The translations under genes and the position numbers were made by a program. Shown one piece after another: positions 15,963 to 47,787 of a DNA stretch of 64,000 nucleotides. The notes under the pieces are model-generated. The model was given only the letters and a program-made list of their open reading frames with translations, did no database searches and had not been told where the DNA came from. Each line of letters begins with the position of its first letter. The stretch's first letter is position 1. Origin of the DNA: a virus; the IMG/VR virus record IMGVR_UViG_3300050013_000165, positions 1 to 64,000 of that record; one strand, 5' to 3'.

Positions 15963-16544
15963 ATGGCTGCAAAGAACATCAATACACCACAGGCTCTGAA
16001 GCGTCGAATACGAGAGCAAACAATTGTTGACGACAACGGCTGTTGGATTTTCCAAGGAGCCAAAGATCGAGCAGGGTATGGGCGCTTCTATATGGGGCTC
16101 GGGCAGACTCGACGCACTCATCGCCTCACTTATGAATTGTGGGTAGGGCCAATTCCTGAAGGATTAGAGCTAGACCATCTTTGTAATACTCCGGCTTGTT
16201 GTCGTCCATCACATTTAGAACCAGTTACCGGATTAGAAAATAGGCAACGGGGGACAAAACGTCGAAAGCGATGCGGGCGCGGACATTATTACTCAAAGCG
16301 AAATACCTACATTACGCCGCAAGGTGTTCGAATGTGTCGAGAATGTCGTCGAATCCACGGAAGGATCAATGACGCCAAACGACGTCCTTCTCATCTTCCA
16401 AAGCGAATTTCTCCTAATCATTGTTTTCGTGGGCATCTTTTGACTGAAGAGAACACCTATCGCATTGATGGGGAACGTCGGTGTCGAAAATGCAGTGCCG
16501 ACCGGCAAAGAGGTTACCGCCAAGCGAAGAAAGAAGTTGCATGA
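15963..16544 (+). CDS. HNH homing endonuclease
   Basis: GCWIFQG...GYG...HRLTYE...GPIPEGLELDHLC...HLEPVT..EN plus two CxRGH...CxxC modules. Confidence 0.9.
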   Translation: MAAKNINTPQALKRRIREQTIVDDNGCWIFQGAKDRAGYGRFYMGLGQTRRTHRLTYELWVGPIPEGLELDHLCNTPACCRPSHLEPVTGLENRQRGTKRRKRCGRGHYYSKRNTYITPQGVRMCRECRRIHGRINDAKRRPSHLPKRISPNHCFRGHLLTEENTYRIDGERRCRKCSADRQRGYRQAKKEVA

Positions 16545-17206
16545 AGATTGTCATTGGATTTCCTGTGAAGGATAGAGCTTGGGTTCTCCCACAGATGCTT
16601 CAAGCGCTCGAACAGCAAGACGTGACCTTCGAAGTCGTGGCGCTCTATACGGCGTCGGAAGACGATACGGAGCAAATCCTCAAAGACCACGGCGTCGAGA
16701 TTCACTATGACGAGAGCCCCGGCAGACCGCGGCACAAGATCGATGGGCACAACTGGGGGACACTCGATCAGTTCGAGTACATGGCGACACTGCGTAATCG
16801 CCTCGTGGACATCTGCATTGAGAAAGATGCCGATTATTTCTTCTCCCTAGACAGCGACATCATCTTGCCGCTGAACGCATTAGAGAGCCTGCTCGCCTTC
16901 TCTCAAAGCCATCCTGGTGTTGTTTCACCGGCCGTCAATATGACCATCAATCAGACGGCGTGGAACATGATGCGCTGGAACGGATTGATCGGTGTCGCTG
17001 ATCGAACCGGCAGAGCTGCGATAGGTGAGACGGGGCAAGCCGACGTAATCATGGCCGCAATGTTGCTCGACCGATTAGGGATGACAGCGCGCTGGCGACC
17101 AAATCCCAATGGTGAAGACATGGGTTTCTGCCATGATTGCGAAGAGAAGGGAGTCCCTAGATGGTGGGTTCGAGAGATCGTGTGTGACCATCTTATGTTC
17201 AGATAA
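16541..17206 (+). CDS. GT-A (family 2-like) glycosyltransferase
   Basis: IGFPVKDR, RNRL, FSLDSD (DxD), GED. Confidence 0.85.
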   Translation: MKIVIGFPVKDRAWVLPQMLQALEQQDVTFEVVALYTASEDDTEQILKDHGVEIHYDESPGRPRHKIDGHNWGTLDQFEYMATLRNRLVDICIEKDADYFFSLDSDIILPLNALESLLAFSQSHPGVVSPAVNMTINQTAWNMMRWNGLIGVADRTGRAAIGETGQADVIMAAMLLDRLGMTARWRPNPNGEDMGFCHDCEEKGVPRWWVREIVCDHLMFR

Positions 17207-17625
17207 TGGCTGCTCCATACACACCCGAACTGTTTTGGGCCAAAGTAGTTAAGACCGAAACATGTTGGATTTGGCAAGGAAATAGTGACAATGGTCGGGG
17301 TTACTTTTCGATCATGTGGGCTCAAAAACGACGTTACGTGCATCGCGTAGCATGGGAGTTGGTCAATGGTCCCATTCCAGACGGATTACAAATTGACCAT
17401 TTATGCAGAAACAAGCGCTGTGTCAATCCCACTCACCTCGAACCCGTTACAGGACGCATCAACAAATTGCGTGGAAATACAATCACTCGGAGAAATGCGG
17501 AGGTGACACATTGCGTTCGAGGCCATCCTTACGACAAAGAAAACACCATTGTGGGGACTACGCCCCTTGGAACTCCTCGGCGAGCTTGTCGGAAGTGTCG
17601 AAAGCTTTATCGGATGTTTCGTTGA
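17206..17625 (+). CDS. HNH homing endonuclease
   Basis: CWIWQG...HRVAWE..NGPIPDGLQIDHLCRNKRCVNPTHLEPVT. Confidence 0.92.
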   Translation: MAAPYTPELFWAKVVKTETCWIWQGNSDNGRGYFSIMWAQKRRYVHRVAWELVNGPIPDGLQIDHLCRNKRCVNPTHLEPVTGRINKLRGNTITRRNAEVTHCVRGHPYDKENTIVGTTPLGTPRRACRKCRKLYRMFR

Positions 17626-18595
17626 GCTGTTGCTCGATCCAGGTGTAAAGCATTGCGAGTCCGTATTCGAGAGAGACTTCCGGTTCCCATCCGCAGACTT
17701 CTTTGGCGAGAGAAATGTCCGCATTGCGTGCATCTACACCGATTGCTCCATCGACATAGCGGCGACTCAAACGAACACCGCCAATCTGTTCGACTATTGA
17801 AACAAGATCATCAACGGTGACCGAACGGTCGCTTCCGATGTTTACCGGCTTTGAGTAATCGGATTCCATCAAGGCGATGGTTCCTCGAACGCAATCCTCC
17901 ATGTGAAGGTAACTGCGGAGCTGCTTGCCGGTCCCCCAAATCTCGATCTCATGGTTCCCTGTCTTGACGGCCGTTGCTACTTTGCGGCACATCGCTGCCG
18001 GAGCCTTCTCCTTGCCGTCGTTCCACGTTGAGTGCTCGCCGAAGACGTTGTGGTATCGAGCGATGCGGACTTCGAGTCCTTGCTCTTCGGCGTAATGCTT
18101 CATTAGCTCTTCCATGTAGAGCTTCGAGAATCCGTAGCCTTCCTCGGGCTGTGCAGGCCATGCCATGTCTTCTGACATTTGCCAATCGTTTGACTGACCA
18201 GAACCACCAACCATGTACTTGGTGTTTTGTAGATTTGTGTTGTAAACACAAGCGCTCGACGAAAAGAAGACCCGTGGTACTCCGGCTTTGACTGCTTCCC
18301 GAAGGATCGCTATGCCAATTTCAATGCTCTCGGCACACGCCACTTTGTGGGTGGTGATGTAACCGATGCCGCCCATGTTCTCGGCAAGATCGTAGATGGC
18401 ATCAGCTCCTCGAAACGCCCCCGAACCGCCAACTTTGGTGCAGTCGAGTTGCACGTTCTGTGCCTGATTGTGTAATTGCCACCATTCGTTCTTTGGCTTG
18501 ATGTCGATGGCTCGAACTTCGTTTCCTCGGACCAATAGCTCCCTAACCAAATGTCCGCCAATGGCACCACCGGCCCCGCAAACAACGATCTTCAT
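17558..18595 (-). CDS. GDP-mannose 3,5-epimerase-like NAD-dependent epimerase
   Basis: GAGGAIG, LAENMGGIGYI, SSSACVY, YGFSK, EKAPAAMCRK match the GME signature. Confidence 0.9.
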   Translation of the reverse strand: MKIVVCGAGGAIGGHLVRELLVRGNEVRAIDIKPKNEWWQLHNQAQNVQLDCTKVGGSGAFRGADAIYDLAENMGGIGYITTHKVACAESIEIGIAILREAVKAGVPRVFFSSSACVYNTNLQNTKYMVGGSGQSNDWQMSEDMAWPAQPEEGYGFSKLYMEELMKHYAEEQGLEVRIARYHNVFGEHSTWNDGKEKAPAAMCRKVATAVKTGNHEIEIWGTGKQLRSYLHMEDCVRGTIALMESDYSKPVNIGSDRSVTVDDLVSIVEQIGGVRLSRRYVDGAIGVDARNADISLAKEVCGWEPEVSLEYGLAMLYTWIEQQLNETSDKAFDTSDKLAEEFQGA

Positions 18596-18681
18596 TAGAG
18601 GTTCCCTCCGAGTCGGAATTGAATTGAGATCGACGGTAGCTGGCAAGTAGAAAGGGGTCATAGTCAATTTCGGGAGATCAA

Positions 18682-19254
18682 ATGTCGTTCGCCGAGGAGT
18701 ATTTGAACGAGACCCGTGCGATTATCGATCAGCTCGATTACGAGCAAATCGAAGCAATCGCTCAGGGTATTGCCGGAGTTAGACGGCTTTTCATCCTCGG
18801 TGTTGGGGGCTCAGCAGCAACGGCTTCACATGCAGTGAACGACTTCCGAAAGATTTGTGGTGTCGAGGCCTACGCACCAACTGACAACGTGGCCGAGCTA
18901 ACAGCGCGCACGAACGACAACGGTTGGGGGACAACTTTCGTTGACTGGCTAAAGGTTTCGAAGCTCGACAGTGACGACGGTGTTCTAATCCTCTCGGTCG
19001 GCGGCGGGGACAGCCACGGAGCTTCACCCAATCTTGCTGAAGCGATTAAGTACGCTCGCCGGACATTGGGAATCGAGAAGGGTATCGGAGCAACAATCTT
19101 TGGCATCGTTAGTCGCGACGGGGGGTACACGAAACGATTTGGTGATCGTGTGCTAGTAATCCCTCCGCTTTACGAGAACCGGATTACACCTCACACGGAA
19201 GGATTGTGTTCAGTGATCTTGCACTTAATCGTTTCTCATCCGGCACTCTCATGA
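18682..19254 (+). CDS. gmhA: sedoheptulose-7-phosphate isomerase (SIS domain)
   Basis: GVGGSAATASHAVNDFRK, ELTARTND, SPNL, TPHTEG. Confidence 0.88.
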   Translation: MSFAEEYLNETRAIIDQLDYEQIEAIAQGIAGVRRLFILGVGGSAATASHAVNDFRKICGVEAYAPTDNVAELTARTNDNGWGTTFVDWLKVSKLDSDDGVLILSVGGGDSHGASPNLAEAIKYARRTLGIEKGIGATIFGIVSRDGGYTKRFGDRVLVIPPLYENRITPHTEGLCSVILHLIVSHPALS

Positions 19255-19940
19255 AGCTCTTTTGCGATGGTGCCGATTTGCGCTCAATGGAGCGTTATGC
19301 CGAGGAAGATTTCATTCACGGATTCACCACGAATCCGACCTTGATGGCGAAAGAAGGTGTGCGACAGTACGAAACCTTCGCCAAGGAAGCGCTACGACTC
19401 ACGGTCAAACCGATCTCGTTCGAAGTACTGGCCGACGAACCTTCCGAGATGGTGCGCCAAGCTCGAATCATCGGTAGCTGGGGCGAAAACGTCTTCATCA
19501 AGATTCCAATCCAAACGACCAAAGGTCGCCACACGACTGAGATCATCTCGACGCTCAGTAGGGAAGGGTTCAGGATCAATGTCACCGCAGTGTTCACCGA
19601 GGCGCAGGTTTCTCGTGCAGCGACGGCACTCACTGGTGGCATCAATCGAGGGATCATTTCGGTGTTCGCCGGACGAATTGCCGACACTGGCGTTGATCCA
19701 ATAAGGACGATACGTTACGCACGAGACTGGGCAGGCAGATGGTCCGAAGTTCTTTGGGCGAGCCCGCGTGCAGTGTGGGACTACTACGCAGCCGATTATG
19801 CGGGCGCACAGATCATCACCATGACACCAGAGCTGATCGAGAAGATGCGAGCAAGTGCGGGCAAAGACCTCACTCTGTTTTCGCTTGAAACGGTGGTGAT
19901 GTTTCACAACGACGCCAAGGCTTCTGGTCTCTCGCTTTGA
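19251..19940 (+). CDS. tal: transaldolase (short TalC/FSA type)
   Basis: LFCDGAD, GFTTNPTLM, SFEV, IKIP, INVTAVF, SVFAGRIADTG, LWASPR. Confidence 0.92.
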   Translation: MKLFCDGADLRSMERYAEEDFIHGFTTNPTLMAKEGVRQYETFAKEALRLTVKPISFEVLADEPSEMVRQARIIGSWGENVFIKIPIQTTKGRHTTEIISTLSREGFRINVTAVFTEAQVSRAATALTGGINRGIISVFAGRIADTGVDPIRTIRYARDWAGRWSEVLWASPRAVWDYYAADYAGAQIITMTPELIEKMRASAGKDLTLFSLETVVMFHNDAKASGLSL

Positions 19941-20890
19941 TCATTACTCAAACCCCGCTGCGCCTCACACTCGGCGGCGGGGGCACCGACGACCCAACCT
20001 TCGTAAAGGAACACGGAGGCTTTGCACTAACGGTGGCAATCGACAAACACGTCTTCGTGGGCATTCACAAAATGCTCGATCCTGGCTATCGTTTGAAATA
20101 TGCCAAGGAAGAGATCGTCAACGAACTCGATGAGATCAAGCACCCGATGTTTCGGGAAGCGCTCCGCTATTACCAAGTTCCTCCTGGCGTTGAGCTTGTC
20201 TCTCTTGCTGACATTCATTCTGGTAGTGGTCTTGGTTCTTCTGCTGCCTTCACAGTCAGTCTTTGTCGTGCTCTGGCTGCTTTCACGGGTCGCCACCCCA
20301 TTCACCGCTATGAGATAGCTCGGGTTGCTGCACACATCGAGCTAGAAGTTCTTGGTCGCGGTGGAGGTGTGCAAGATCACTGGGCGTGTGCGCTCGGGGA
20401 CCTTCAGGCGTTGACGTTTCGTCGTGACGGCTCAGTTGATTACGACTACATCCCAATGCAAGGACACGTCGTCAAAGAGCTTCAAGCAGGGCTCTGCATG
20501 TTCCTGGTCGGCTACTCACGCGATGCCGACACGGTGCTCGTCGAACAGTCTCAGGACGGGCTCGCCGAGATCAAAGCTCGGGGGTATGAGGCCTACGAAC
20601 TTCTCTGTCAAGGTGAGCTTCGGACGTGGGCCGAGAACATGAATTACCACTGGGAGGCCAAGAAGAAGCGCTCGAATTTGATCTCGTCAAACGAGGTCGA
20701 TGAGATGTACGCTTACGGTCTCGCCAATGGAGCCATAGGCGGCAAGCTCGTCGGTGCCGGAGGTGGGGGCTTCCTAATGTTCTATACCGAGGAGCCCGAG
20801 CGATTGTCGTCGGCGTTCCGAGGCAAACTTCAAGAGGTTCAATTTGAGTTCACAGGAGATGGAACCGAAACCATCACACGCACTCCCTAA
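19937..20890 (+). CDS. hddA: GHMP kinase, heptose-7-phosphate 1-kinase
   Basis: TPLRLTLGGGGTD, GSGLGSS, QD, GGKLVGAGGGGF. Confidence 0.9.
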   Translation: MIITQTPLRLTLGGGGTDDPTFVKEHGGFALTVAIDKHVFVGIHKMLDPGYRLKYAKEEIVNELDEIKHPMFREALRYYQVPPGVELVSLADIHSGSGLGSSAAFTVSLCRALAAFTGRHPIHRYEIARVAAHIELEVLGRGGGVQDHWACALGDLQALTFRRDGSVDYDYIPMQGHVVKELQAGLCMFLVGYSRDADTVLVEQSQDGLAEIKARGYEAYELLCQGELRTWAENMNYHWEAKKKRSNLISSNEVDEMYAYGLANGAIGGKLVGAGGGGFLMFYTEEPERLSSAFRGKLQEVQFEFTGDGTETITRTP

Positions 20891-21419
20891 GCAGTTGCAG
20901 TGTGTGGTGCTGGCCGGTGGGTATGGCACTCGATTGGCTCCCCTCACCGACAACTGCCCGAAGATCATGGTGCCTGTTCTTGGGCGTCCCTTTGCCTATT
21001 GGCAGCTTGATCTCATGAAGAAGTGGGGCGTCACTGAGGTTGTCTATTGCGTCAATCATCTCGCTCACAAAGTGAGAGAGCTGGGCGACGATTACAAAGG
21101 CATCCGCTTGCTCTACAGCGAAGAGAAGAACCGACCACCAGATGCATTGTGGAAGTTTGCTGTTCGCAACGCACTCCCGCTTCTCGATGAAGAGTTCTTG
21201 TTGATGTACGGCGACTCTTATTTGCCGGACGTGGACATTGACTCAGTGAAAGCGTTTGGTCCTTCACTCATCACGTCGTGGCAAGGGATCGACTACGGGT
21301 TGTGGCACTGCCATCGAAGCGAGTTCGCATTCGCCGAGCTTCAAATCATCGAGCGCTTTCACGAGATCGGTTCTCTCGAAGGGCTCGTCGAGCTAGAGGC
21401 GTATCTACAAAACCGGTAA
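20859..21419 (+). CDS. hddC: sugar-1-phosphate nucleotidyltransferase (HddC-like, compact)
   Basis: LAGGYGTRL...PKIMVPV.GRPF, YGDSY, FHEIGS. Confidence 0.8.
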   Translation: MEPKPSHALPKQLQCVVLAGGYGTRLAPLTDNCPKIMVPVLGRPFAYWQLDLMKKWGVTEVVYCVNHLAHKVRELGDDYKGIRLLYSEEKNRPPDALWKFAVRNALPLLDEEFLLMYGDSYLPDVDIDSVKAFGPSLITSWQGIDYGLWHCHRSEFAFAELQIIERFHEIGSLEGLVELEAYLQNR

Positions 21420-22169
21420 TGGTGGGCGGCGCATGAAGTCGATGTTGCACTCGTTCGAGCCCTCAGGGTCGATGCGCCAGTTCGCCAACGGGTTGTCGCT
21501 CTTGTAGTACATCAGCGTTTCAGTGATGAACTTGAAGCGTGGCCCAGCGAGTTCGAGCGCAGTCAAGGTGAACTGCACATCACAGCCCTTCTCGTACCAC
21601 GCACCTATCTTCGGTCCACCGTCGTAATGAAACTGATCCACGGGGACGTTGTTGAAGATGCGACCTTTCATCGTTCGAAGGTGGTTGAAGTACACAGCGC
21701 CGAACGCTCGATAGGAGCGGTTCGCTATCACTTCCGGCGGGTACTCGCGTGCCGGTGGGCAACCAGGCTCTGGTGGGTCCGGTAGGTAGCTCCCATACGT
21801 CGCCAGCGTGTCGTCGGCGTAATAGTCGAGCAAGTGCGCAAGAACATCGGGGTGTGCAAAGCGATCACCATCAAGGTCAAGAAAGATGATGATGTCGTCA
21901 TCGGCAGGCTCCATCTTCTGGATGCCTTCCCAACGCATTTGGGTGTCGAGCTTCCACGGAGCTTCATCGTTTCCGTTGAAGATGATTTTGTTGGGGTAAT
22001 CAAGAAGGGCGCACTCTATTTGGTGTCCAGCGGGATCAGTCGCCCAGTCTTCGGTCTCATAGGAGATGCAGAGTTGCCAGTCCTTGACAGTCTGCATTCC
22101 AACGGAGGAGATCGTTTGGTGAATCTGTTGTGGTGTGCACTTCCAACCGTTGCTGATGATTTTGAACAT
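21405..22169 (-). CDS. GT-A glycosyltransferase (paralog A)
   Basis: LDLDGDRFAH..VL, TYGSY, HLRTMK, LELAG, Y..DNP. Confidence 0.75.
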   Translation of the reverse strand: MFKIISNGWKCTPQQIHQTISSVGMQTVKDWQLCISYETEDWATDPAGHQIECALLDYPNKIIFNGNDEAPWKLDTQMRWEGIQKMEPADDDIIIFLDLDGDRFAHPDVLAHLLDYYADDTLATYGSYLPDPPEPGCPPAREYPPEVIANRSYRAFGAVYFNHLRTMKGRIFNNVPVDQFHYDGGPKIGAWYEKGCDVQFTLTALELAGPRFKFITETLMYYKSDNPLANWRIDPEGSNECNIDFMRRPPLPVL

Positions 22170-22978
22170 TAGAACTTCTTCTTTAGTGGCGGCTTTGCCC
22201 TGAAGTTGTCATCGCACTCTTTGTTCTCGTTGTTATTCATGCGCCACGCCGAGAACGGATTGAGTGAGTTGTAGACCATCAGCACCTCTTCGATGTAGCG
22301 ATGGCGGTAGCCGACCATTTCGAGCGCGGGGATCATCGAGGTGACGTCATCGACTTTCTTATACCACTCTCCCTTTTTGTGTGGGTACTTTTCAGCGCCG
22401 TTGCCGAGAACGTCTTCGGACCACTGGAACTGATCGAGTGGGATTGCGTTGAAGACCTCGAACTTCATGGTGCGCAAATCAGCAGCACGATAGGGGGCAG
22501 AGCGAAACGAGCGATCCACAATGACCTTGTTGTCGTAGGGAAGGGCTCGCAGTGGAGAACCGACAGGTGGCACGTTCTCGTAGTTCCCATACGTCAAGAG
22601 CGGAAAGCCGTCAGCGTAAGCGTCGTGCACTCTGTCCAACACTTGGTGGTGTGCAAACCGATCCCCGTCAAGGTTGAGCCAAATGATGACGTCTTCGTCG
22701 TCGGGCTCCATCGCCTGAATTGCCTCATAGCGAGCCTTCGTACCGTAAATGAAGTTCTCTTGGCCGGTGCGAATTGTGTACCTGAATTGCGTGTCGCGAT
22801 CAGATGCCGCTTTGATCCACCATTTGAGTCGGTAATCGACAGAGAAGGTTTCTTCTTCGTTCTCTGACTCGTAGGAGATCATGACCTCAAAGTCACGACG
22901 ACTCTGCAAATCGATTGAGTTGAGGGTCCACATCATGGAGTCGAAACAGCGCCACCCGGCGCACACAATCTTAAACAC
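22169..22978 (-). CDS. GT-A glycosyltransferase (paralog B)
   Basis: LNLDGDRFAH..VL, TYGNY, LRTMK, YNSLNP; homologous to the neighbour. Confidence 0.75.
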   Translation of the reverse strand: MFKIVCAGWRCFDSMMWTLNSIDLQSRRDFEVMISYESENEEETFSVDYRLKWWIKAASDRDTQFRYTIRTGQENFIYGTKARYEAIQAMEPDDEDVIIWLNLDGDRFAHHQVLDRVHDAYADGFPLLTYGNYENVPPVGSPLRALPYDNKVIVDRSFRSAPYRAADLRTMKFEVFNAIPLDQFQWSEDVLGNGAEKYPHKKGEWYKKVDDVTSMIPALEMVGYRHRYIEEVLMVYNSLNPFSAWRMNNNENKECDDNFRAKPPLKKKF

Positions 22979-23516
22979 GAGGCGTCAACCGAAAGATGTC
23001 GTCTTTGAGATCACAATCGAAATCGTTTTTGATTGCGGTCTCTGCCACCCACTCGTAATGGGGGTAGTCCTTGAACTCCTCTGTGTGCTCCGGCATACCA
23101 CCAAAGAGACGAGCATCGTCGATGAGGATCACGCTCCCCTTTGGTGCAGTTACTGCTGCTTCAAGTTCCGCAACGATGGGGGTGTCGCTGTCGGCAGCTT
23201 TGGCTGTGCCGTCGCCCGAGTAGTGGCCGTCCAACCAAAAGAGAATTGGTTGGTGATCAATGACGAGATGCTTCAGTAGCTCGCCGCTGTTTCCATGAAG
23301 ACAAGTCACATGGGCGAAGGGTGCAAATCGTGCGCGACAGTGATCGTAAAGCCCTTCATCAAGTTCAATGGTGATGATCTTGTCGAAGTCTTCAATCAAG
23401 CCACCGGGAGTGGTTCCATATCCACTTCCACTTTCGATGAGAACGTGGAGATCGTAGGAACGGGCATAGCCACGCATCATGTTCATGCGCTGCTCGAACT
23501 CTAAGATGTGTGACAT
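22971..23516 (-). CDS. class I SAM-dependent methyltransferase-like protein
   Basis: IESGSGYG, TIELD, GNSG, FWLDGH, ILIDD. Confidence 0.8.
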   Translation of the reverse strand: MSHILEFEQRMNMMRGYARSYDLHVLIESGSGYGTTPGGLIEDFDKIITIELDEGLYDHCRARFAPFAHVTCLHGNSGELLKHLVIDHQPILFWLDGHYSGDGTAKAADSDTPIVAELEAAVTAPKGSVILIDDARLFGGMPEHTEEFKDYPHYEWVAETAIKNDFDCDLKDDIFRLTPRV

Positions 23517-24163
23517 CAGTTGCTCCTTACTGCCAGATAGTTTCGGTATTCGTAATCGTCGCTTGCGTCTCGAATGGGGCGCATGTGTCCGTCTCGGTAC
23601 TCGTAGATGGTGAAAGCCGATGGAAGCCAATCAATGGCGTCTTGAAGACGCTCACTCCACGGAGAGCCAGGTCCCCATGTGCCGCCGTACTCGAACTGCA
23701 CGGCCTGGATCATCTCTTCAGCAAGTGCGTGTGTTGCACCTTTGATGACAGGGACTTCATAGCCCTCAGTATCGATCTTCAAGAAAATGTCGTCTTCAAC
23801 TTTGTAATTGAGTAAATAGTTGTCAATGGTTGTGACACTGACTTCTTCCCACTCCTCGCCCTCGAACACGCCACGCAAGTGCGATTGACAAATGTCGTCG
23901 GTGCCGAGTGTGAGCTTTGTGCGTTCGATGATGTTCCCAACAGCCGTGTTGATTACCGACGTTCTCAAATCACCCGAGTACTTTTCAGCGAGAAGCATTG
24001 CAGCACCTGAGCGAGGTTCGAATAGGTGCGCCTCAACGTGCCCGCAGTGCTCTCGAACGCAATCGGTGTAGGCACCTTCTGCTGCACCGACATCGAACAG
24101 GACGAACTCGTCGTGGAATAAGTTGAAGACCATCTCGATAATGGCGTGCTCGTCAGCCTGCAT
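23516..24163 (-). CDS. FkbM-family methyltransferase
   Basis: FDVGA..G, FEP, LKIDTEGYE..VIKGA, QFEY. Confidence 0.9.
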   Translation of the reverse strand: MQADEHAIIEMVFNLFHDEFVLFDVGAAEGAYTDCVREHCGHVEAHLFEPRSGAAMLLAEKYSGDLRTSVINTAVGNIIERTKLTLGTDDICQSHLRGVFEGEEWEEVSVTTIDNYLLNYKVEDDIFLKIDTEGYEVPVIKGATHALAEEMIQAVQFEYGGTWGPGSPWSERLQDAIDWLPSAFTIYEYRDGHMRPIRDASDDYEYRNYLAVRSN

Positions 24164-24788
24164 TGTTCTTCCGTGCATAGAGAGCATCGCCCCAACCCTG
24201 GCCTGGAACCCAGCACGTCTCGACGCGATCAAAGTCCTTCAGAATTCCATCGAGTTCCCAAACCTGATCGCAGTCGATGTAGACCGGTTGGTCGTTGACT
24301 TCGCTCATTACAAATTGAAGCGATGGCAGAAGGCGGGCTGCTCCACGAAGAGCGTGAGCTTCAACACCCTGGATATCCAGTACGAGCATGTTCACATTGG
24401 TGATGTCGAACATGTCCACGAGTGTGTCGATACGTCGGGTCTTCATTGGCTTGGTTTCAACAACGGTGATCTCGGGGGAGAACTGGACGTGTGTGCCAAA
24501 GGAGAGGATCGAAGAAGACATGCCGTCGAGGTTGGTGACATTGAAGTTGAACTCGACTTCGTCTTCATCCCACACAAGAGCGTGGATTACTTTGTGGCCT
24601 CGGTGCACGACGTTCTGTGCGAGTGTCACGAGGATGTTGTCGTTGGCTTCCACCCACCACACGTTGTCAATCCCAGCGCTCTGGTAGTAGTCGGCTTCCT
24701 CGCCGATGCGAGCCCCACAATGAATGACGCCAGTCACCTTGTTAGCCAGATCGTATTTGGCAGCAATGGTGTTCCAATCAAGCAGCAT
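24153..24788 (-). CDS. FkbM-family methyltransferase
   Basis: GVIHCGA..GEE, EAN, SSSIL, LDIQGVE..ALRGA, EVN, WGDALY. Confidence 0.9.
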   Translation of the reverse strand: MLLDWNTIAAKYDLANKVTGVIHCGARIGEEADYYQSAGIDNVWWVEANDNILVTLAQNVVHRGHKVIHALVWDEDEVEFNFNVTNLDGMSSSILSFGTHVQFSPEITVVETKPMKTRRIDTLVDMFDITNVNMLVLDIQGVEAHALRGAARLLPSLQFVMSEVNDQPVYIDCDQVWELDGILKDFDRVETCWVPGQGWGDALYARKNNAG

Positions 24789-25638
24789 CTACGACTCTCC
24801 ATCCGGCGGGGAACAAAATTGACTCATCAATGAAATCGTTCAGGGGACCGTACACCTTGCTCGGGCGTACAACATGGTCCGGCGGAACATTAGCGAGAAT
24901 GGCTCCCCAAATCCCAAACGTGGAGCCCGTTACGACGAGGTAATCACACGCCGCAAGCGTGAACAAATCGATCCAATCAGATGGTTCGGTTGTTCCATAG
25001 AGCGGGTCGTGTTCTTTGAAGTAGTCGCGCCCGTTGCCAAAGAAGCAGTTTGACTTCCAGTGTTGTTGGCACCAAATAACGTCGTCTGAGATGATGACGG
25101 TGGAGCGGACAAACTCATTTGCTTTGTCGTGAACTTCTCGTTCAGCGGTCTTGTAGTAACCAAGCGACATGCACAGGTGGTAATCGAGATTGTTTGGCAC
25201 ACCTGGGTCTGCTCCACCAACTTTGTCTGAACGACGCACATGGATACCGAGACTGGTTCCAGAAGCGGTGCCGATGTAATCAGGATTGCCTGCAAGCATT
25301 TGCACAGCATGGTTACTGGGGGCCAGGTACTCACGAATCTCGTCGATGCAGTGCCAGAACAAATTGACGTCTTGAAGATATGGCCGACAACGAGGGTCCA
25401 TGTGATGAGTGAGTTCCGAGTCCATAGGAGTAGTTGCTGTCCCTGCCGATATATAGCCTGCCATTACCAAATTGATGGCGAACATCTCATTTGGAATTGA
25501 GAAGTATGGTCGGTAAATCCAATCGGCAGGGAAGATTGGGCGTTCGCCAAGAGTGCGAGCAACACCGACAGTGGATGCGAATTCGAAGAGAGCGTTGCCT
25601 AGACGACCAAATCGTCCGAGATTTGGGTAGGCAATCAC
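24778..25638 (-). CDS. GT11 alpha-1,2-fucosyltransferase-like protein
   Basis: GRLGN.LF, YLQD, IHVRRSD, SDD..WC, STFGIWGA. Confidence 0.88.
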   Translation of the reverse strand: MIAYPNLGRFGRLGNALFEFASTVGVARTLGERPIFPADWIYRPYFSIPNEMFAINLVMAGYISAGTATTPMDSELTHHMDPRCRPYLQDVNLFWHCIDEIREYLAPSNHAVQMLAGNPDYIGTASGTSLGIHVRRSDKVGGADPGVPNNLDYHLCMSLGYYKTAEREVHDKANEFVRSTVIISDDVIWCQQHWKSNCFFGNGRDYFKEHDPLYGTTEPSDWIDLFTLAACDYLVVTGSTFGIWGAILANVPPDHVVRPSKVYGPLNDFIDESILFPAGWRVVDAA

Positions 25639-40318: not shown

Positions 40319-40392
40319 CAGGACTTTTGTCATATGGGAAGCATTATGGCATTACCGGTGTTAGATTCATTAGATGGACAAGGAGGTCCAAG

Positions 40393-40782
40393 GTGAAAAG
40401 GAACAGGCTGCACATAGCGTTTTGGATGTGGATGCTGCTTATCGGCGGGTTCGCTGTTTTACTTGGTTCGTCTTCACACACTGTTGATGGCATTGCCACC
40501 GGCATGATCCTTGTTGCTCTTGCTGCTGCTCTGATTTGGTTTCTCCGTTGCGGGTGGTCGGCTGCCCATTATTTCAATCAGCAACTCACCGTCGCTGCGA
40601 CCCCGGTCATGTCTCCGCAGGAGATCAACCAACGCTTCATTAACGACCAGGGGCGTGAGCCAACTATCGAAGAGGTTGCTGCAATTCAGCAAATGCTTCG
40701 TAATGAGCACAACGACGCCTTGGTGCGTTCGGGGATTGGCATTGGAGCACTTCTCTTCATTGGGCGTAGCGCCAGGCTCTAA
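40393..40782 (+). CDS. membrane protein
   Basis: AGGAGG RBS; 2-3 TM helices. Confidence 0.7.
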   Translation: MKRNRLHIAFWMWMLLIGGFAVLLGSSSHTVDGIATGMILVALAAALIWFLRCGWSAAHYFNQQLTVAATPVMSPQEINQRFINDQGREPTIEEVAAIQQMLRNEHNDALVRSGIGIGALLFIGRSARL

Positions 40783-40791
40783 ACTGGGCTC

Positions 40792-41175
40792 ATGCCACGA
40801 CGCCCAGGCGGATTAGGTGACTACGGTCGCCGTCGAGTAGACGATCTTCTTTCTCCCTTTCTGAGCGTCGATCCGGTCGAGCCCGAAGGCAACCCGGCGG
40901 CGCTCACCATCTCAATTCCCGATGAGCGAGAGTTTGTCCCCGATTACTGGGACACCTTTGATTCTTCGCGGGTCCGCGAAGCTGTCTATGACCGAGAGCA
41001 CCAGCGGCTCTATGTTCGGTTCGTAAAACCCGAGCCAGTCGGGACGCCGTGGACCTATGAAGGAGTGCCAGAGAATGTTTGGCGCAATTTCAAAGCATCA
41101 AAGTCGCAAGGGAAATTCGTCAATCGAGTTCTCAACCAGTACTCCTACCACCAAGGGACCTGGAACTCTCGCTGA
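40792..41175 (+). CDS. KTSC domain protein
   Basis: SSRV..A.YD...QRLYVRF...YEGVP..VW..FKASKS.GKFVN. Confidence 0.85.
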   Translation: MPRRPGGLGDYGRRRVDDLLSPFLSVDPVEPEGNPAALTISIPDEREFVPDYWDTFDSSRVREAVYDREHQRLYVRFVKPEPVGTPWTYEGVPENVWRNFKASKSQGKFVNRVLNQYSYHQGTWNSR

Positions 41176-41187
41176 TCAGGTGATTGC

Positions 41188-41604
41188 GTGATCGCCTTCA
41201 TCCATGCGAGCTTGCGTTACGACCTAGACCACCTCCGGCATTTTTTCGCCTTCGCATTTAATCCAGACAACTGGATCACCAACGGGTCCGAACAAGTCAT
41301 TGCGGCTCTCGTCATCTTCGTCTTCAGTGCATTTTTCGTGAAGAAAATTTGGCCCAAATGGAAGGCTCGCCTCAGCGCTCGACTGAAGAAGGGCGACACC
41401 TTTCTTCACGAAATTGTCGGGCACCTCCTGAAGCCACATCTCGATGCACACCATGATCGAATGGTGCGCTCGATCCGAGGCGAACTTCGAGCAAAGCCTG
41501 TGTTGCCTAAAGCTCCGCAGCGCTCTGCTCCGAGGTTGCCGACCCCGGCAAAGAAAAGCTCTCCAAAGAGGAGATCACCGACACGAAGGAGTTCTAATTC
41601 ATGA
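41188..41604 (+). CDS. membrane protein with basic tail
   Basis: One TM helix; Lys/Arg/Pro-rich C-terminus. Confidence 0.55.
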   Translation: MIAFIHASLRYDLDHLRHFFAFAFNPDNWITNGSEQVIAALVIFVFSAFFVKKIWPKWKARLSARLKKGDTFLHEIVGHLLKPHLDAHHDRMVRSIRGELRAKPVLPKAPQRSAPRLPTPAKKSSPKRRSPTRRSSNS

Positions 41605-42581
41605 CACGTACCGCTGGACGAGTAGGTCCGCATCGCGAAAGTCACGAGGAGTCGCTTCTCGTAACCAACTTCTCAGCGGCGGGCGAGTCCAATGCATATG
41701 CCGACTGGGATGGGACGCACGGCATTACCGAATGGGGAATGGACAACAACGGTCCTGACCCGACCAATCCTCCGGCGTTTCCTGACGGACTTGGTTGTTG
41801 TGGAGGTGCTGCACCTGATCACGGCAACATGGCGAAGAAGGACGACGTCTCGTTGCTCGGCACGCTTGGTCAACCAAAATTTTCTGGCATGCTCGGCACA
41901 TATTTTGCATTTGGTGTGTCACAAGGTGAGGTCGGCCAACCTCCGGCACCAGAAGATGAGCCCGACCAAGGTGTTGCAAATGCTCCTTGGTTGAAGTTCC
42001 TTTTCGAGAACGGGATCCTCGACGAGTACGCCGAAGTTCCGCTCGATCAGCTAGACACCTATGCGCCGATTGGCAACGGTCTTTTGATTGGTGTGCAGCT
42101 CGATGCGCAGGCGCAGCAACAGTTCGAGAATCAGGAGCCGTGGGACGGAGCGCCGGACCCCGAGATGGGGCACGACGTTTGGCTCATCAAGCTCAATGCT
42201 GATGGTTCGGGTGAGGTGATTAGTTGGGGAGCGAACCAGGCGTTCACTCTCAACTTCCGACAGAACAACATCACCGACGCTTGGTTGATTGGTGACAACG
42301 ACGACCCGACCGTGGATCATGACGCACTGCATGCAGCAATCGTTGCGCTCGGTGGTGCATCGAACAACCAAACGCCGCCAGCAGACGACACGCCACCTCC
42401 TGCGCCTCCGGCGAAGGGGAAGTCGAAGATCAAGGACGTGCTCGAATCCGTTGAACACGACATCGAAGAAGCTGTGCACGATGTTGATGAAGAAGCAAAG
42501 CGACTCGCCAGTGACGTCAGTAAGGGCGTTTTCGGTCGAAGCAATGCGGACGTTTCAAACGGGCCTGGTCCAAGACGGTGA
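41601..42581 (+). CDS. papain-like cysteine peptidase
   Basis: WGMDNN...GCC..A..H, D.G, GHDV, ISWG. Confidence 0.6.
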   Translation: MTRTAGRVGPHRESHEESLLVTNFSAAGESNAYADWDGTHGITEWGMDNNGPDPTNPPAFPDGLGCCGGAAPDHGNMAKKDDVSLLGTLGQPKFSGMLGTYFAFGVSQGEVGQPPAPEDEPDQGVANAPWLKFLFENGILDEYAEVPLDQLDTYAPIGNGLLIGVQLDAQAQQQFENQEPWDGAPDPEMGHDVWLIKLNADGSGEVISWGANQAFTLNFRQNNITDAWLIGDNDDPTVDHDALHAAIVALGGASNNQTPPADDTPPPAPPAKGKSKIKDVLESVEHDIEEAVHDVDEEAKRLASDVSKGVFGRSNADVSNGPGPRR

Positions 42582-42909: not shown

Positions 42910-42985
42910 TGAAGGACTGCTCGCAACTGAAGGCTCGAATTGACGAAGTTGCGAACACCATTGATCAAGTTTTGGAGGAAAACGA

Positions 42986-43354: not shown

Positions 43355-43574
43355 GCGCGCCTCGAACCTCGGTGACGATGAGTTAGTGAAGCTCCTCGAA
43401 GCGTCCATCGCATCTATGTCGAGCTACGTCCCCGAGTACCGCTCGACGAGAGATGTTGCTTTTCTCGGGGAGATTCGACTGTCGGCTGAAATGGCCTACT
43501 CACTTGCTGATGAACTATTCAGTCGAGGGCAAGACTCCGCAGTCAAGCGCACTCGACAGTTCTTGGGCCGCTAA
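43293..43574 (+). CDS. conserved helical phage protein
   Basis: TAATG-coupled to the GT gene. Confidence 0.6.
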   Translation: MLRRRTTAKQNETPNQSKLAERASNLGDDELVKLLEASIASMSSYVPEYRSTRDVAFLGEIRLSAEMAYSLADELFSRGQDSAVKRTRQFLGR

Positions 43575-44347
43575 TGCCTGTCGATGTTGTTGTCGTGAAC
43601 TACAAGACACCGGATTTGCTTCAAGACTTCATTCGTTCTTATGAAGCCTTGGAACTACCGGGTTGCACGCTCACTATTGTTGAAGTTGAAGCGAACATTC
43701 CTGAAGATTGGCTTCGTGCTGAAGAATCCAATTCAAGGCAAACTCTCTTCTTTCGGGAAAACATTGGATATGGAAAAGCGTGCAACGAAGGGGCAGCTCT
43801 CGGGCACAATTCCATAATTCTCTTCGCTAACGCTGACACCCTTTTGAGTGATGGGTTCAGGGAATGCCATGACGCTTTAAGAGACCATCCGAATTGGGGA
43901 GTTCTCGGACCTCGACAAGTGAACGAGTTCAACTGCTTTACTGCGGGCGGCATCCCTGGTGGACCTCACGGCCATGTTCAACGTGGTTGGAACCAAACCG
44001 ATGTTGGTCAGTGCAGCGATGTGCTTGAAGACGTCTACTCGGTTTCGGGTTCGCTTTATTTCATCAAACGCTCTGTGTGGAAAGAACTGACTGAGTGTCC
44101 GGTTTGGAAAGAGTATGCACCCAATGCTGTTGGAGCCTTCTTGGAGACGCGGCACTACTTCGAAGAGACGACGTGTTCTCGGCATCTCACTGCTCACGGG
44201 CACATCAATGTGTTCTACGGACCCGTGAAGATGACACACCTCTTTCATCGTTCATCAGATCACGGGGGTTGGCAGGATCGAGAGGTCACCAACAGCAAAA
44301 CGATGCACAGAGAATTTCTTGCGCTACACGGCATTGAACATGAGTAA
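43574..44347 (+). CDS. GT2 glycosyltransferase
   Basis: VVVVNYKT, NIGYGKACNEGA, NADT, VSGS, YFEE. Confidence 0.92.
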   Translation: MPVDVVVVNYKTPDLLQDFIRSYEALELPGCTLTIVEVEANIPEDWLRAEESNSRQTLFFRENIGYGKACNEGAALGHNSIILFANADTLLSDGFRECHDALRDHPNWGVLGPRQVNEFNCFTAGGIPGGPHGHVQRGWNQTDVGQCSDVLEDVYSVSGSLYFIKRSVWKELTECPVWKEYAPNAVGAFLETRHYFEETTCSRHLTAHGHINVFYGPVKMTHLFHRSSDHGGWQDREVTNSKTMHREFLALHGIEHE

Positions 44348-44777
44348 CAAACTTCGGTGTAGTGCTTGTCGGCTGAATAAGGGTGAAGCAGAGTTTGCAC
44401 TGAATTCCCGAACTAAGACTGGGCATCAAAATCAATGCCGTAGTTGCATGAAGAAGCACAACTCTCGTTATACAACTGATGATTACCGCTGGAAGAAAAT
44501 CCTTTGGATGTATCATCTGACCCGAGCGCAATTTGAAGCCCTCTTGAAAAAGCAGGGCGGTCGTTGCGCCATTTGTCGGACGAAACGCCCAGGAGGTCGG
44601 TACAACCGTTGGGTAATCGATCACGATCACAAGTGTTGCGACGGCCCTTATTCCTGCGGTAAGTGTGTTCGAGGATTGCTGTGCAATCGATGTAATCACG
44701 GTTTAGGAAACTTTGCAGATAATCAAAAAGCTCTTCAGCGTGCTGTCATCTATCTTGAACGAATCGAGCACGAGTGA
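44340..44777 (+). CDS. endonuclease VII-family homing endonuclease
   Basis: QGGRCAIC...IDHDHKCC...CGKCVRGLLCNRCNHGLG. Confidence 0.92.
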   Translation: MSNKLRCSACRLNKGEAEFALNSRTKTGHQNQCRSCMKKHNSRYTTDDYRWKKILWMYHLTRAQFEALLKKQGGRCAICRTKRPGGRYNRWVIDHDHKCCDGPYSCGKCVRGLLCNRCNHGLGNFADNQKALQRAVIYLERIEHE

Positions 44778-44880
44778 TGGAAGACATTCGAGATCGAGAC
44801 TGGTGTGCTTGTGTTGATCCACTTCTCAATCAGTGCAAGGAGCGTCACTGTCCGTGGAAGAGAAAGCGACTTGAAGAAGA

Positions 44881-45612
44881 ATGAGACTTTTTGCTTTTAC
44901 GGTTGGAAAGAACGAGGAGAGTCGATACCTGTCTTCCATGATTCGCAATCTTGATGGCTTTGTCGATGATCACTTTTTTTACGACGATCAATCGACAGAT
45001 CGAACATTGGATATTGCTGACGTTTTGGGTTGTGTCGCTATCCGGCGTCCTGATGGGGTGGCCTCTTTTTCAGAAGATGAGGGAATGTTTCGCGAAGCCG
45101 CTTGGAAGTCTTTTGAGCTTCATATGCATCCCCGGCTTGGTGATTGGGTTCTCGTAATTGACTGTGACGAGTTTCTTTCCATCAAAGGTCAGGGTGTCGA
45201 GTTCAACGACATCATGCGTGGTGGAACGGCCGTCAATCTGAGTATCCCCGAAGTTTTCGGCTTTGATACAGATGGGTGCCCTCTTGTTCGCACGGATCGA
45301 AAGTGGGGAACAATTTTTGCTCCCCGACTTTTCGCCTATCAAGAAAATGGTGGCTTCGCTCGGGGCAAGGTTGGTGTTCCTGCTGTTCCGAGTTACGTCA
45401 TGGCGACCCCGAATCGGGTCTCGACGGACGATGTCGTTTTGATGCACTTGGGGTACGCACGGTTTGAAGATCAAGAGATCAAATACGCTCGATACAACGG
45501 CGTCGATGGTCATTCTGACGAACACGTTCAGTCAATTGTGTCACCGGACAAGACGCTTGTTCGGTGCGAAGAGTGGAAGTGCAGGATTCCGTGGAAACAG
45601 TTGATGTCATAG
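44881..45612 (+). CDS. GT2-like glycosyltransferase
   Basis: KNEE.RYL, DDQSTD.T, IDCDE, HLGY. Confidence 0.88.
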   Translation: MRLFAFTVGKNEESRYLSSMIRNLDGFVDDHFFYDDQSTDRTLDIADVLGCVAIRRPDGVASFSEDEGMFREAAWKSFELHMHPRLGDWVLVIDCDEFLSIKGQGVEFNDIMRGGTAVNLSIPEVFGFDTDGCPLVRTDRKWGTIFAPRLFAYQENGGFARGKVGVPAVPSYVMATPNRVSTDDVVLMHLGYARFEDQEIKYARYNGVDGHSDEHVQSIVSPDKTLVRCEEWKCRIPWKQLMS

Positions 45613-46223
45613 TTCCAACCTGTGGCGATATCGATGTATGGAAGCCGTTGGCCGAGCGTGCTCAACAGTCGGCCTTCAACCAAGTTGTCAAAGCGAATCG
45701 AGTGATCTGGTCACACAAGGCGACGGTTTCCGAAGCTCGGAACTTCGGAGCTTCACTCAGCACCGGAGATTGGCTGATCTTTCTTGACGCCGACGATGAA
45801 CTTGACCCACGGTATATCGAGCACATGATCGCGGGGAGTGGAGATATACGGCAACCTTCGACGCTCGGGGTCGTTAATGGCGTCGAGGATGATTTTCCAG
45901 TTCTTATCGAGCAGAAGAGCCTCATCATAGGTAACTATCTGATAATCGGCTCGATGGTCCGGCGGAAGTTGTTCTTGTCGGTAGGGGGTTTCCGTGACTT
46001 CCCGATTCTTGAAGATTGGGATTTATTTATTCGCCTCGCACTGGCTGGGGCTAAAATTGGCAAATGCCCTGATGCCATTTATCGGGTGCATGTACTTCCC
46101 GATAGTCGAAATAAACAGGGAGACTCAATTCATGGCAGCGTCTACAGTCAAATCCAAAGGGAACACGAAGCCGCTTGGTTCGCAAAGTTCCACCGTGACG
46201 AGTCATCCTTGTACGTTGTGTAA
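45591..46223 (+). CDS. GT2 glycosyltransferase
   Basis: ARNFGA, FLDADDEL, GGF, EDWDL. Confidence 0.9.
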   Translation: METVDVIVPTCGDIDVWKPLAERAQQSAFNQVVKANRVIWSHKATVSEARNFGASLSTGDWLIFLDADDELDPRYIEHMIAGSGDIRQPSTLGVVNGVEDDFPVLIEQKSLIIGNYLIIGSMVRRKLFLSVGGFRDFPILEDWDLFIRLALAGAKIGKCPDAIYRVHVLPDSRNKQGDSIHGSVYSQIQREHEAAWFAKFHRDESSLYVV

Positions 46224-46608
46224 GCGACCAATTAAGAGCAAATACAAGCGTTGCAGTAACTGTCGTCAAGGTCAACGAGAGGATTATTACGCCAATCACG
46301 ACCGCTTATTGAAGAAAATGCGTGAGCGTGATCCAGAAGGACGATTTGCTTACAACATAAAGCGTTGGTACGGAATCACGCTTGACGAGTACAACTCTTT
46401 GTTGAAAGAGCAGGGCGGGGGGTGCGCCATTTGCCATTCGACAGAACCGGCAGGCAAAAGAGTCAAGCGGTTTTCTGTTGACCATGACCACCGGACCGGA
46501 AAAGTTCGAGGTCTGCTTTGTAATCTTTGCAATCACTTGCTTGGCTGTGCTCGGGATGATTTGCAGCTTTTAGTAAATGCCGTTGCGTATTTGGAGCGGG
46601 TGGCATGA
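46132..46608 (+). CDS. endonuclease VII-family homing endonuclease
   Basis: YGITLDEY...QGGGCAIC...VDHDHRTGKVRGLLCNLCN. Confidence 0.92.
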   Translation: MAASTVKSKGNTKPLGSQSSTVTSHPCTLCKRPIKSKYKRCSNCRQGQREDYYANHDRLLKKMRERDPEGRFAYNIKRWYGITLDEYNSLLKEQGGGCAICHSTEPAGKRVKRFSVDHDHRTGKVRGLLCNLCNHLLGCARDDLQLLVNAVAYLERVA

Positions 46609-46889
46609 CCAATAAAATTTATCTAAATACTAACGAAATTATCTTTCTAAACGCCGACCATCAATTAGTTGATGGAAGTGCTGTTCATCCTCTGATGTGT
46701 GAACAGACAATGGAGCACATGAGAGAAGTCCACGGTGTTACAGACGGTTATACCGAAGGTGCAATTTTGGACTTGTCGTGGTGGCTGCAACAACACTTGA
46801 AACTTCACCCACCAATTACTCGGAAGTGGCCTGACCTTAATGAGCCTGGGTATGGTCGTCCAATAAAAATGAAACCTGTAAAACGATGA
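46605..46889 (+). CDS. hypothetical passenger protein
   Basis: ATGA-coupled to the endonuclease; AT-rich. Confidence 0.6.
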   Translation: MTNKIYLNTNEIIFLNADHQLVDGSAVHPLMCEQTMEHMREVHGVTDGYTEGAILDLSWWLQQHLKLHPPITRKWPDLNEPGYGRPIKMKPVKR

Positions 46890-47071
46890 GTTTGTGGATT
46901 AGGTGCAAAATGGCCGGGGCTGTAATTTCGGCAGTACCCGAAGCCATCTATCGCGTTCATGTGAACGAGGGTAGTCGCAACAAACAGCCGCCAGAGTTGC
47001 ACGGTCAGACCTATATGCAGATTCAGCAGGAACACCAAATGGAATACATGCGAATGTTCGGTCGAACATGA
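46886..47071 (+). pseudogene. displaced duplicate C-terminus of the 45591-46223 GT
   Basis: 28 of 48 residues identical by manual alignment (AIYRVHV, SRNKQ, HG..Y.QIQ.EH). Confidence 0.85.
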
Positions 47072-47787
47072 TCTCGTTCCTGATCCCTTATCTCCCAAAT
47101 GGTGACGAATACCGAGAACGTGCGTGCAAGTACATTTTGGGGGCGTTGGCAATCGATTGGCATGAGCCAGATGCCGAAATCATCATTGGAGGAATCGAGC
47201 CGTTTAATCGGTCGGCAGCGCGCAACCAGGCGGCAAAGCGTGCCGATGGGGACATTCTCGTTTTTGTCGATGCCGACTCTTTTGTTCCAAAGCATCAAAT
47301 TCGTGAAGCCCTTTCTCTGGCCGAGGAACGAGGGTGGGCATTTCCTTACGATCACTATTGCTCTATGACGGAGATGGGGACCGAGAACTTCATTGCTGGG
47401 GCTGCTCTTCCTGATCCATTGAGCTGGGGAACTGACATGTTTGATCGTGACTATTACGAGTTCATTTTTCCCTCGAAGGACACTCCTGAGCCCGCAGTCG
47501 GCGGGTGTGTTGTTGTGACTAGAGCTGCTTTCGAAACGGTAGGCGGATACGACGAGCGCTTCATTGGCTGGGGAGAAGAGGATCGAGCCTTCATGCTCGC
47601 ATTAGACACGCTCGTGAATGCAGAGCATCGGGTGAGCGGCAACATCTTTCACCTATGGCACGAGCACCCCGAAGAGGAGTGTTTCGCTCAACCGAACTTC
47701 AGTGATAACCGGAAGCTCTGTAATCGCTACCGGGAAGCTTGCGGCAACCTTCAAATGATGCGGGAGTTGATCGCCGAACGAAACTGA
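47068..47787 (+). CDS. GT2/GT7C-like glycosyltransferase
   Basis: FNRSAARN, VDAD, GGYDERFIGWGEED, HLWH. Confidence 0.92.
   Translation: MISFLIPYLPNGDEYRERACKYILGALAIDWHEPDAEIIIGGIEPFNRSAARNQAAKRADGDILVFVDADSFVPKHQIREALSLAEERGWAFPYDHYCSMTEMGTENFIAGAALPDPLSWGTDMFDRDYYEFIFPSKDTPEPAVGGCVVVTRAAFETVGGYDERFIGWGEEDRAFMLALDTLVNAEHRVSGNIFHLWHEHPEEECFAQPNFSDNRKLCNRYREACGNLQMMRELIAERN

Follow-up and report, generated by a model that had tools for sequence, protein, structure and literature searches.

A glycosyltransferase and methyltransferase cassette beside the packaging and head genes of an uncultured soil phage, with a candidate virion target

What does a tailed phage decorate with eight glycosyltransferases (GTs) and three methyltransferases (MTs)? 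IMG/VR virus record IMGVR_UViG_3300050013_000165 raises this question: the first 64 kb of its 101,468 bases (hereafter, the window) contain these 11 genes as two blocks and a lone GT gene, between positions 16541 and 47787, next to the genes for DNA packaging and head formation. A preliminary description of the window had proposed that they make a branched, O-methylated, heptose-containing glycan on the virion from donors supplied by the phage. To our knowledge, the tailed phages for which virion glycosylation has been shown are a few mycobacteriophages, and their GT sets are small. Here we compared the enzymes, their relatives, and their surroundings, and conclude that a virion protein coated with a methylated sugar chain is the most likely product of the cassette (probability roughly 0.5).

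The source is an uncultured phage from soil with a relative in Streptomyces phage BRock. Its large terminase (TerL; 26131-27660, minus strand) matched Terminase_6C and showed 45% identity with TerL of BRock, a 112-kb myovirus, and its major capsid protein (54889-55881, plus strand) showed 71% identity with the BRock counterpart. PHROGs identified the portal, the endolysin, and the beginning of the tail sheath gene. A megablast search with 24 kb against phages gave no match, indicating that there is no close isolate. The completeness of the record estimated by CheckV was ca. 68%.

The glycan enzymes and their arrangement as one cassette

All 11 enzymes of the preliminary description were recovered in place by Pfam, profile, homologue, or ESM Atlas evidence. 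The lone GT (16541-17206, plus strand), a GT-A fold enzyme similar to GT25 and GT2 members, is flanked by two HNH homing endonuclease genes (15963-16544 and 17206-17625). Its single sequence gave a weak match to Pfam GT2 (E = 1.6e-4), and a profile of five cassette homologues (A2) matched the GT-A domain of procollagen galactosyltransferase 1 (COLGALT1) in the PDB with an E-value of 6e-11; it has a conserved S-x-D-S-D motif. On the minus strand, a paralogous pair of GT2 enzymes (21405-22169 and 22169-22978; 37% identity to each other) has an L-D-G-D-R-F motif, of which D100, G101, and D102 were invariant in alignment A1, and PF00535 was detected in most of their 40-47% identical homologues. 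The same strand encodes a GT of the alpha-1,2-fucosyltransferase family GT11 (24778-25638), which matched PF01531 (E = 3.6e-13; 49.9 bits against a cut-off of 23.9) and phrog_2644 (E = 4.6e-26). This enzyme contains H-V-R-R-S-D, which we take to be the GDP-fucose-binding HxRRxD motif of the family, and its homologues are located in GT/epimerase clusters of cyanomyophages.

The second GT block (43574-47787, plus strand) consists of four GT2 genes (43574-44347, 44881-45612, 45564-46223, and 47068-47787) and is broken up by two EndoVII homing endonuclease genes (44319-44777 and 45994-46608), a passenger open reading frame (ORF), and an orphan GT tail (46892-47071). The orphan ORF is a duplicate of the C-terminal 58 residues of the GT at 45564, with 50% identity. 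The last three GTs of the block matched Pfam GT2 families. The GT at 43574 had no Pfam match; it fell among GT2/COG1216 clusters of the ESM Atlas (feature score, 0.98; template modeling [TM] score of the structure, 0.84), and its nearest clusters were 100% viral.

The three MT genes lie on the minus strand between the paralogous GT pair and the GT11 gene. Two encode FkbM-family enzymes (23516-24232 and 24153-24788) that matched PF05050 with E-values of 4.6e-11 and 1e-12, respectively; the copy at 24153 is conserved in relatives, and the copy at 23516 has no homologue there. The third (22971-23519) is a class I S-adenosylmethionine (SAM)-dependent MT according to ESM Atlas features (0.97) and structure (TM score, 0.89), which placed it in class I/O-methyltransferase clusters; in five cassette loci (L003-L007), its homologue adjoins the 21405-type GT, so that the two are conserved neighbours. 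No membrane-spanning or hydrophobic segment was found in any of the eight GTs and three MTs, all of which are predicted to be real soluble enzymes. In a contig scan of 185,579 species genomes of bacteria and archaea, no relative of the 21405-type GT was found, and tblastn with the 21405 GT gave no match among 50,697 phage records. Because of the former result and the viral Atlas clusters of the GT at 43574, the GT families of the cassette look virus-specific.

Relatives of the cassette were collected by scanning IMG/VR with an alignment of the 21405-type GT family, followed by tblastn with all window proteins; a scan of viral contigs with the single 21405 GT sequence had given no match. Three genomes, G001 (137.5 kb, 100% complete), G002 (partial), and G003 (136.6 kb, 96% complete), carry a single contiguous cassette in which seven GT families are represented by homologues, together with those of an FkbM MT, the class I MT, and a GDP-mannose 3,5-epimerase (GME)-like enzyme. 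Its genes run in the order 16541-type GT, 43574, 44881, 45564, 47068, GT11, FkbM, 21405-type GT, class I MT, and GME; the 16541-type GT is the first cassette gene in L003-L005, and GME homologues close the cassette in L003-L006, L008, and L009. The gene set recurs in the same order in at least ten other viral contigs. A single fusion protein combines the 21405-type GT with the class I MT in G003 and G001, and the cassette of G003 additionally contains a UDP-glucose/GDP-mannose dehydrogenase, a further GT2, and a CmcI-type O-methyltransferase. All PF00535 matches in the cassette-bearing genomes fell within cassettes. The capsid protein of the G001-G003 phages is unrelated to that of the window, and the cassette is thus common to different lineages.

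The contiguity of these genes in other phages provides good support for regarding the two blocks and the lone GT of the window as one predicted methylated-glycan assembly system. The four GTs 43574-47068 also precede the head genes, with their order unchanged, in a close relative, G004 (capsid protein identity, 89%), and in four more contigs. Splitting of a single cassette by one simple inversion was considered and fits only in part, as the two blocks of G004 have the same orientation yet are separated by ca. 25 kb.

Location at the packaging and head genes and the target of the glycan

The preliminary description had placed one block behind the terminase gene and the other ahead of the lysis and head genes, and both placements held. 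At the head of the minus-strand run (25635-28042), an EndoVII gene (27641-28042), the TerL gene, and an HNH gene (25635-26159) precede the GT11 gene; TerL of G004, with 66% identity to that of the window, is likewise followed by GT11. On the plus strand, the second block is followed by a homologue of BRock gp155 (47854-48249; 44% identity to the BRock ORF located just after TerL) and then by the downstream late genes (49249-55881), which PHROGs identified as endolysin (49249-50103), portal (51552-53309), and major capsid protein genes. To compare this arrangement among relatives, window proteins were mapped onto 80 capsid-protein relatives retrieved of at least 598. At 35 loci with capsid identity of 66-81%, including BRock, TerL is followed by the gp155 homologue and then by the portal and capsid genes, and no GT was found. 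Among the relatives retrieved, GTs occurred only where capsid identity was 89% or more, in a subclade of six contigs with that of the window included. In this subclade, the gp155 homologue is immediately preceded by the four-GT block. The other block directly follows the terminase gene, which has been relocated in the genome; this second half of the arrangement was seen in the window and G004 only. Since TerL is directly followed by gp155 in the GT-free relatives, the glycan genes flank the ancestral junction between terminase and gp155.

The second lineage shows a comparable placement. In G001, G003, and the GenBank phage GX15bay, the cassette is directly upstream of the packaging module they share. 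The ORF just past the cassette in G003 (L005:16167-19871) encodes 1234 residues with a LAGLIDADG domain and terminase PHROG matches. It is probably an intein-containing large terminase, a call that is only probable because the matches fall on the intein-bearing part of the ORF. GX15bay (L056; GenBank MK557849, Caudovirales) comes from mangrove soil; its seven-gene GT/MT cassette (11824-16947 of the locus), directly upstream of the terminase gene, includes homologues of the GTs at 43574, 44881, and 45564.

Proximity to terminase genes has also been reported for DNA modification clusters, by which an oligosaccharide would be built on a modified base before packaging and protect against restriction. 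Chains of one to three sugars, heptose among them, are attached to 5-hydroxymethylcytosine by GT-A and GT-B enzymes of phages, and the clusters encoding such systems contain sugar-activating enzymes and are sometimes found near terminases (Pyle et al., 10.1101/2023.12.21.572611). The cassette resembles these clusters in its GTs and sugar-donor genes, and it adjoins TerL in two lineages. In addition, a deoxynucleoside monophosphate (dNMP) kinase domain of the T4 gp1 type (31813-32661, minus strand) is present in cassette-bearing G000, G001, and G003 and absent from GT-free BRock and LuckySocke. Kinases of this type also occur in phages with ordinary DNA. Against this explanation, the C5-methylase with 5mYOX or the thymidylate-synthase homologue that DNA sugar-hypermodification clusters require was not found. 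Specifically, a ThyA homologue (PF00303) was absent from G000-G004, including the two 96-100% complete genomes; ParB-like PF02195 was absent from seven records, among them those of the window phage, G001, and G003, with a positive control; the C5-methylase PF00145 was not found in the record of the window phage, the only one searched; and Tet_JBP (PF12851) gave no match in G000-G004, in a search in which the TET positive control also failed to register. The glycans described on DNA do not exceed three sugars (10.1101/2023.12.21.572611). The eight GTs and O-methylation of the cassette also speak against DNA, as no DNA glycan is known to be made with such a set. Taken together, DNA hypermodification is distinctly improbable.

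A further gene bearing on DNA is that at 29665-31080 (471 residues), part of which (ca. 90 residues) matched phrog_887, named queuine tRNA-ribosyltransferase. A DpdA/7-deazaguanine role for it was considered and rejected as unproven, because there was only one partial PHROG match, Pfam TGT and QueC were found nowhere searched, and the gene did not accompany the cassette: GT-free BRock and LuckySocke have homologues, annotated as hypothetical, and none was found in G001 or G003.

In agreement with the preliminary description, family searches with working controls revealed no flippase, polymerase, or hydroxymethylase, and also no priming transferase. PF02397, PF00953, PF01943, and PF04932 (priming transferase, Wzx, and Wzy/ligase) and GT4 were absent from six records, two of them 96-100% complete, with positive controls, in a search that did not include the ABC exporter family. 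These absences bear on remodelling of the host envelope, in which the soluble GTs would extend a lipid- or wall-linked glycan of the host and change its receptors during infection, for example for superinfection exclusion or for freeing progeny from debris. Clusters for O-antigen, capsule, and S-layer glycans typically involve soluble GT2 and GT11 enzymes, FkbM MTs, and GDP-heptose, and the cyanomyophage clusters containing GT11 homologues have no assigned target, both of which would suit an envelope function. Because no phage-encoded priming or export functions were found, such remodelling would need those of the host. The lack of bacterial and archaeal relatives of the 21405-type GT and the viral Atlas neighbours of the GT at 43574 also argue against it, as does the fact that the genes belong to late and structural operons, in a myovirus of lytic type, and not to a lysogenic-conversion module. 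We therefore regard remodelling of the host envelope as unlikely.

The reading that the cassette modifies a virion protein is favoured over DNA and the host envelope by the same absences, i.e., no acceptor-forming DNA enzyme, priming transferase, flippase, or polymerase was found. It is further supported by the position at the terminase-head junction, by a jelly-roll protein gained together with the GTs (described below), and by homology to enzymes of mycobacteriophages. The GT at 47068 matched Che8 gp109 and Corndog gp37 with blastp E-values of 1.3e-19 and 7e-17, respectively, and hhalign gave 99.8% probability (E = 2e-27) over 219 columns; matches to this GT were present in 344 Mycobacterium phage records. 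This homology and the head/packaging placement, which point to a link with the virion, also argue against a free cytoplasmic product, i.e., a methylated oligosaccharide or glycoside that is bound to neither virion, DNA, nor envelope and resembles the polymethylated polysaccharides of actinobacteria. The solubility of all enzymes, the lack of an identified acceptor, and the many MTs would suit such a product, for which no precedent in phages is known; it is very improbable.

Homing endonuclease genes are frequent throughout the region. At least nine HNH/EndoVII genes are present in the window, namely those noted above and those at 1819-2442, 53309-53869, and 55916-56659, and several sit between glycan genes or border the genes for terminase, portal, and capsid protein. 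In G004, the capsid gene (L032/L033, G004:C1:33553-34806) matched residues 1-35 and 33-330 in two parts ca. 255 bases apart and may carry an intron or other insertion, and the portal-bearing ORF (G004:C1:36416-39742) encodes 1108 residues against 585 in the window, which may be due to an intein or to fusion with an endonuclease. The region 40327-42581, ahead of the second GT block, encodes two small membrane proteins (40327-40782 and 41188-41604) and a 326-residue protein with a Pro-rich tail; these genes are conserved in the subclade and may constitute a second lysis-type module.

Sugar donors and a candidate acceptor protein

Donor genes separate the lone GT from the minus-strand block. The GME-like enzyme (17558-18667, minus strand), a short-chain dehydrogenase/reductase, matched Pfam Epimerase (E = 4.5e-36) and plant GDP-mannose-3',5'-epimerase (PDB 2c59; E = 3.4e-65). 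This similarity, with the fact that GME and GT11 homologues share loci in other contigs, supports the earlier proposal of GDP-type donors. Next to it, a four-gene operon (18682-21419, plus strand) encodes a GmhA-like isomerase, a transaldolase, an HddA-like heptose-7-phosphate kinase, and an HddC-like nucleotidyltransferase. In Pfam and NCBIfam searches, the best matches were transaldolase (4.5e-74), HddA (1.1e-40), and, weakly, GmhA, and HddC was among the top matches of the nucleotidyltransferase; every score was below the curated NCBIfam equivalog cut-off. Three of the four GDP-heptose pathway genes (GmhA, HddA, and HddC) are thus represented as best matches below these cut-offs, and a GmhB phosphatase was not found in the incomplete record. 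The operon is a putative GDP-D-glycero-D-manno-heptose pathway.

Among the phages compared, the GDP-heptose/transaldolase block was found in this phage only, and no HddA homologue was present in G001-G005. In G004, the genes for the 16541-type and 21405-type GTs are immediate neighbours, and the region 17206-21419 (HNH gene, GME gene, and heptose operon) is therefore an indel specific to this phage; another subclade member, L063, has GME at a different location. Heptose in the glycan is plausible for this phage only.

A candidate acceptor is encoded right after the gp155 homologue that follows the GT block. The protein (48362-48997, plus strand; 211 residues) has a jelly-roll fold of the TNF/C1q type. 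Its AlphaFold (AF2) model has a predicted local distance difference test score (pLDDT) of 80 and contains a Ser/Thr/Pro-rich loop of ca. 45 residues (approximately residues 105-148; consensus TAQSTSQTTxxPVTxPPT), the pLDDT of which is low yet the sequence of which is strongly conserved. Fold searches gave middling matches (Z = 7-8.8) to phage fibre tips, baseplate parts, and trimeric capsid cement proteins, and the fold also matched TNF/C1q-like heads of collagen-like phage fibres in BFVD. The protein has ca. 70 metagenome homologues, gave no tblastn match in the 50,697 phage records, and was not found among the BRock head-module proteins; among the capsid relatives it is restricted to the GT-bearing subclade. 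Because it adjoins the GTs and was gained with them in a single evolutionary event, we hypothesize that it carries the glycan on the conserved Ser/Thr/Pro loop. In the full form of this proposal, the co-acquired protein would be trimeric and O-glycosylated on the loop with an O-methylated chain of ca. eight sugars, among them heptose made by the phage and sugars of L-galacto configuration, so that a fibre or capsid decoration would be coated with sugar; taken as a whole, this form is tentative, with the odds against it. Downstream of the capsid gene, a 279-residue fibre-like protein rich in Ser and Thr (25%; 58375-59214), which has no homologue in G004 or the other compared genomes, could be a further glycan acceptor or a host-range element.

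The best explanation of the gene content is a phage-encoded, membrane-independent glycan assembly line. In this scheme, the transaldolase, the GmhA-like isomerase, the HddA-like kinase, and the HddC-like nucleotidyltransferase would, by homology, make GDP-D-glycero-D-manno-heptose, with the missing 7-phosphatase supplied by the host, and the GME-like epimerase would convert GDP-mannose and/or GDP-heptose to L-configured GDP-sugars. The eight soluble GT-A/GT11 enzymes would each add one sugar to the acceptor in the cytoplasm, GT11 probably taking an L-configured GDP-sugar, and the three SAM-dependent MTs would O-methylate the chain. The acceptor would be a virion protein made late, the 48362-48997 protein being the best candidate and surface loops of the capsid protein an alternative, and the outcome would be a methylated sugar coat on the particle.

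Several observations weigh against a virion target or against parts of this scheme. The phages of the second lineage (G001, G003, and GX15bay) have no homologue of the 48362 protein, its gain with the GTs counts as one event, and its fold matches do not exceed a Z of 8.8. Compared with that of GT-free BRock, the major capsid protein is not extended at its C-terminus. Heptose incorporation is tentative, since the heptose genes are in one phage only and GmhB was not found. The dNMP kinase that accompanies the cassette and the location of known DNA-glycosylation clusters near terminases would suit a DNA target, and the record of the window phage is incomplete. Furthermore, ten of the enzymes (seven GTs and three MTs) gave hhalign probabilities of 0.3% or less and no blastp match with Che8 gp110/Corndog gp38, and no homologue of Che8 gp108/Corndog gp35 was detected among the cassette enzymes by hhalign. 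As an additional observation on acceptor sites, the Asp-Thr-Gly sequon was not enriched (4 observed against 8.5 expected).

Of the glycan proposed in the preliminary description, a single system, GDP-type donors, O-methylation, and a link to late and structural genes are supported; branching, heptose in the glycan, and a virion acceptor are hypothetical. If a virion target is correct, a complex coat of methylated sugars would take up ca. 10% of the genome of soil phages, and heptose and L-galacto-type sugars would join the chemistry of phage particles. Under the full proposal for the 48362 protein, a tailed phage would for the first time be shown to have heptose in a virion glycan and a protein dedicated to carrying glycans. 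If the sugars are on DNA instead, the modification route would be one without a known acceptor-forming enzyme.

Comparison with known glycosylation systems

The GDP-D-glycero-alpha-D-manno-heptose pathway (GmhA, HddA, GmhB, and HddC) serves S-layer and capsule glycans. The window resembles it in having GmhA-like, HddA-like, and HddC-like genes in a single operon and differs in that GmhB was not found, the transaldolase gene is inside the operon, and the operon is paired with a GME-type epimerase gene.

Among phages, close counterparts are the virion O-glycosylation sets of the mycobacteriophages Che8 (gp108-110) and Corndog (gp35-38) (Freeman et al., 2023, as cited in PMC12363180, PMC11256854, and PMC12619734). 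In PMC12363180, virion proteins of Che8, Corndog, and Myrna are described as glycosylated, and Che8 gp110 and Corndog gp38 are given as essential for this modification. The cassette shares with these systems phage-encoded soluble GTs, an actinophage-type genome, and, in the GT at 47068, a full-length homologue of gp109/gp37. The portal and capsid protease genes flank the Corndog set, and both it and the cassette are embedded in the head module near an HNH endonuclease and the terminase. In contrast, eight GTs and three MTs are present here versus three GTs in Che8 and the four genes gp35-38 in Corndog, and the phage has its own donor genes (GME and the GDP-heptose pathway). Glycans on the C-termini of capsid and tail-tube subunits characterize a Che8/Corndog-type set; the capsid protein of the window has no C-terminal extension of the Che8 kind. 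With homologues of gp110/gp38 and gp108/gp35 absent, the cassette is a partial relative and not a member of the Che8/Corndog set.

In architecture, the cassette also resembles the capsid glycosylation machinery of chlorovirus PBCV-1 (A064R and A111/114R; PMC7826918, PMC9614988), which combines several viral soluble GT domains with an MT. A064R is a GT-GT-MT fusion, and G003 and G001 have the fusion of the 21405-type GT and the class I MT. PBCV-1 differs in being a eukaryotic giant virus with N-linked glycans on Vp54, whereas single-domain genes of a tailed phage are involved here, and the likeness drawn is one of architecture. The system of the window is distinguished by its 11 tailoring enzymes, its own putative GDP-heptose, transaldolase, and GME supply, the clean contrast between GT-bearing and GT-free members of one clade, and a named candidate acceptor; together, these open the question of the target to study without culturing the phage.

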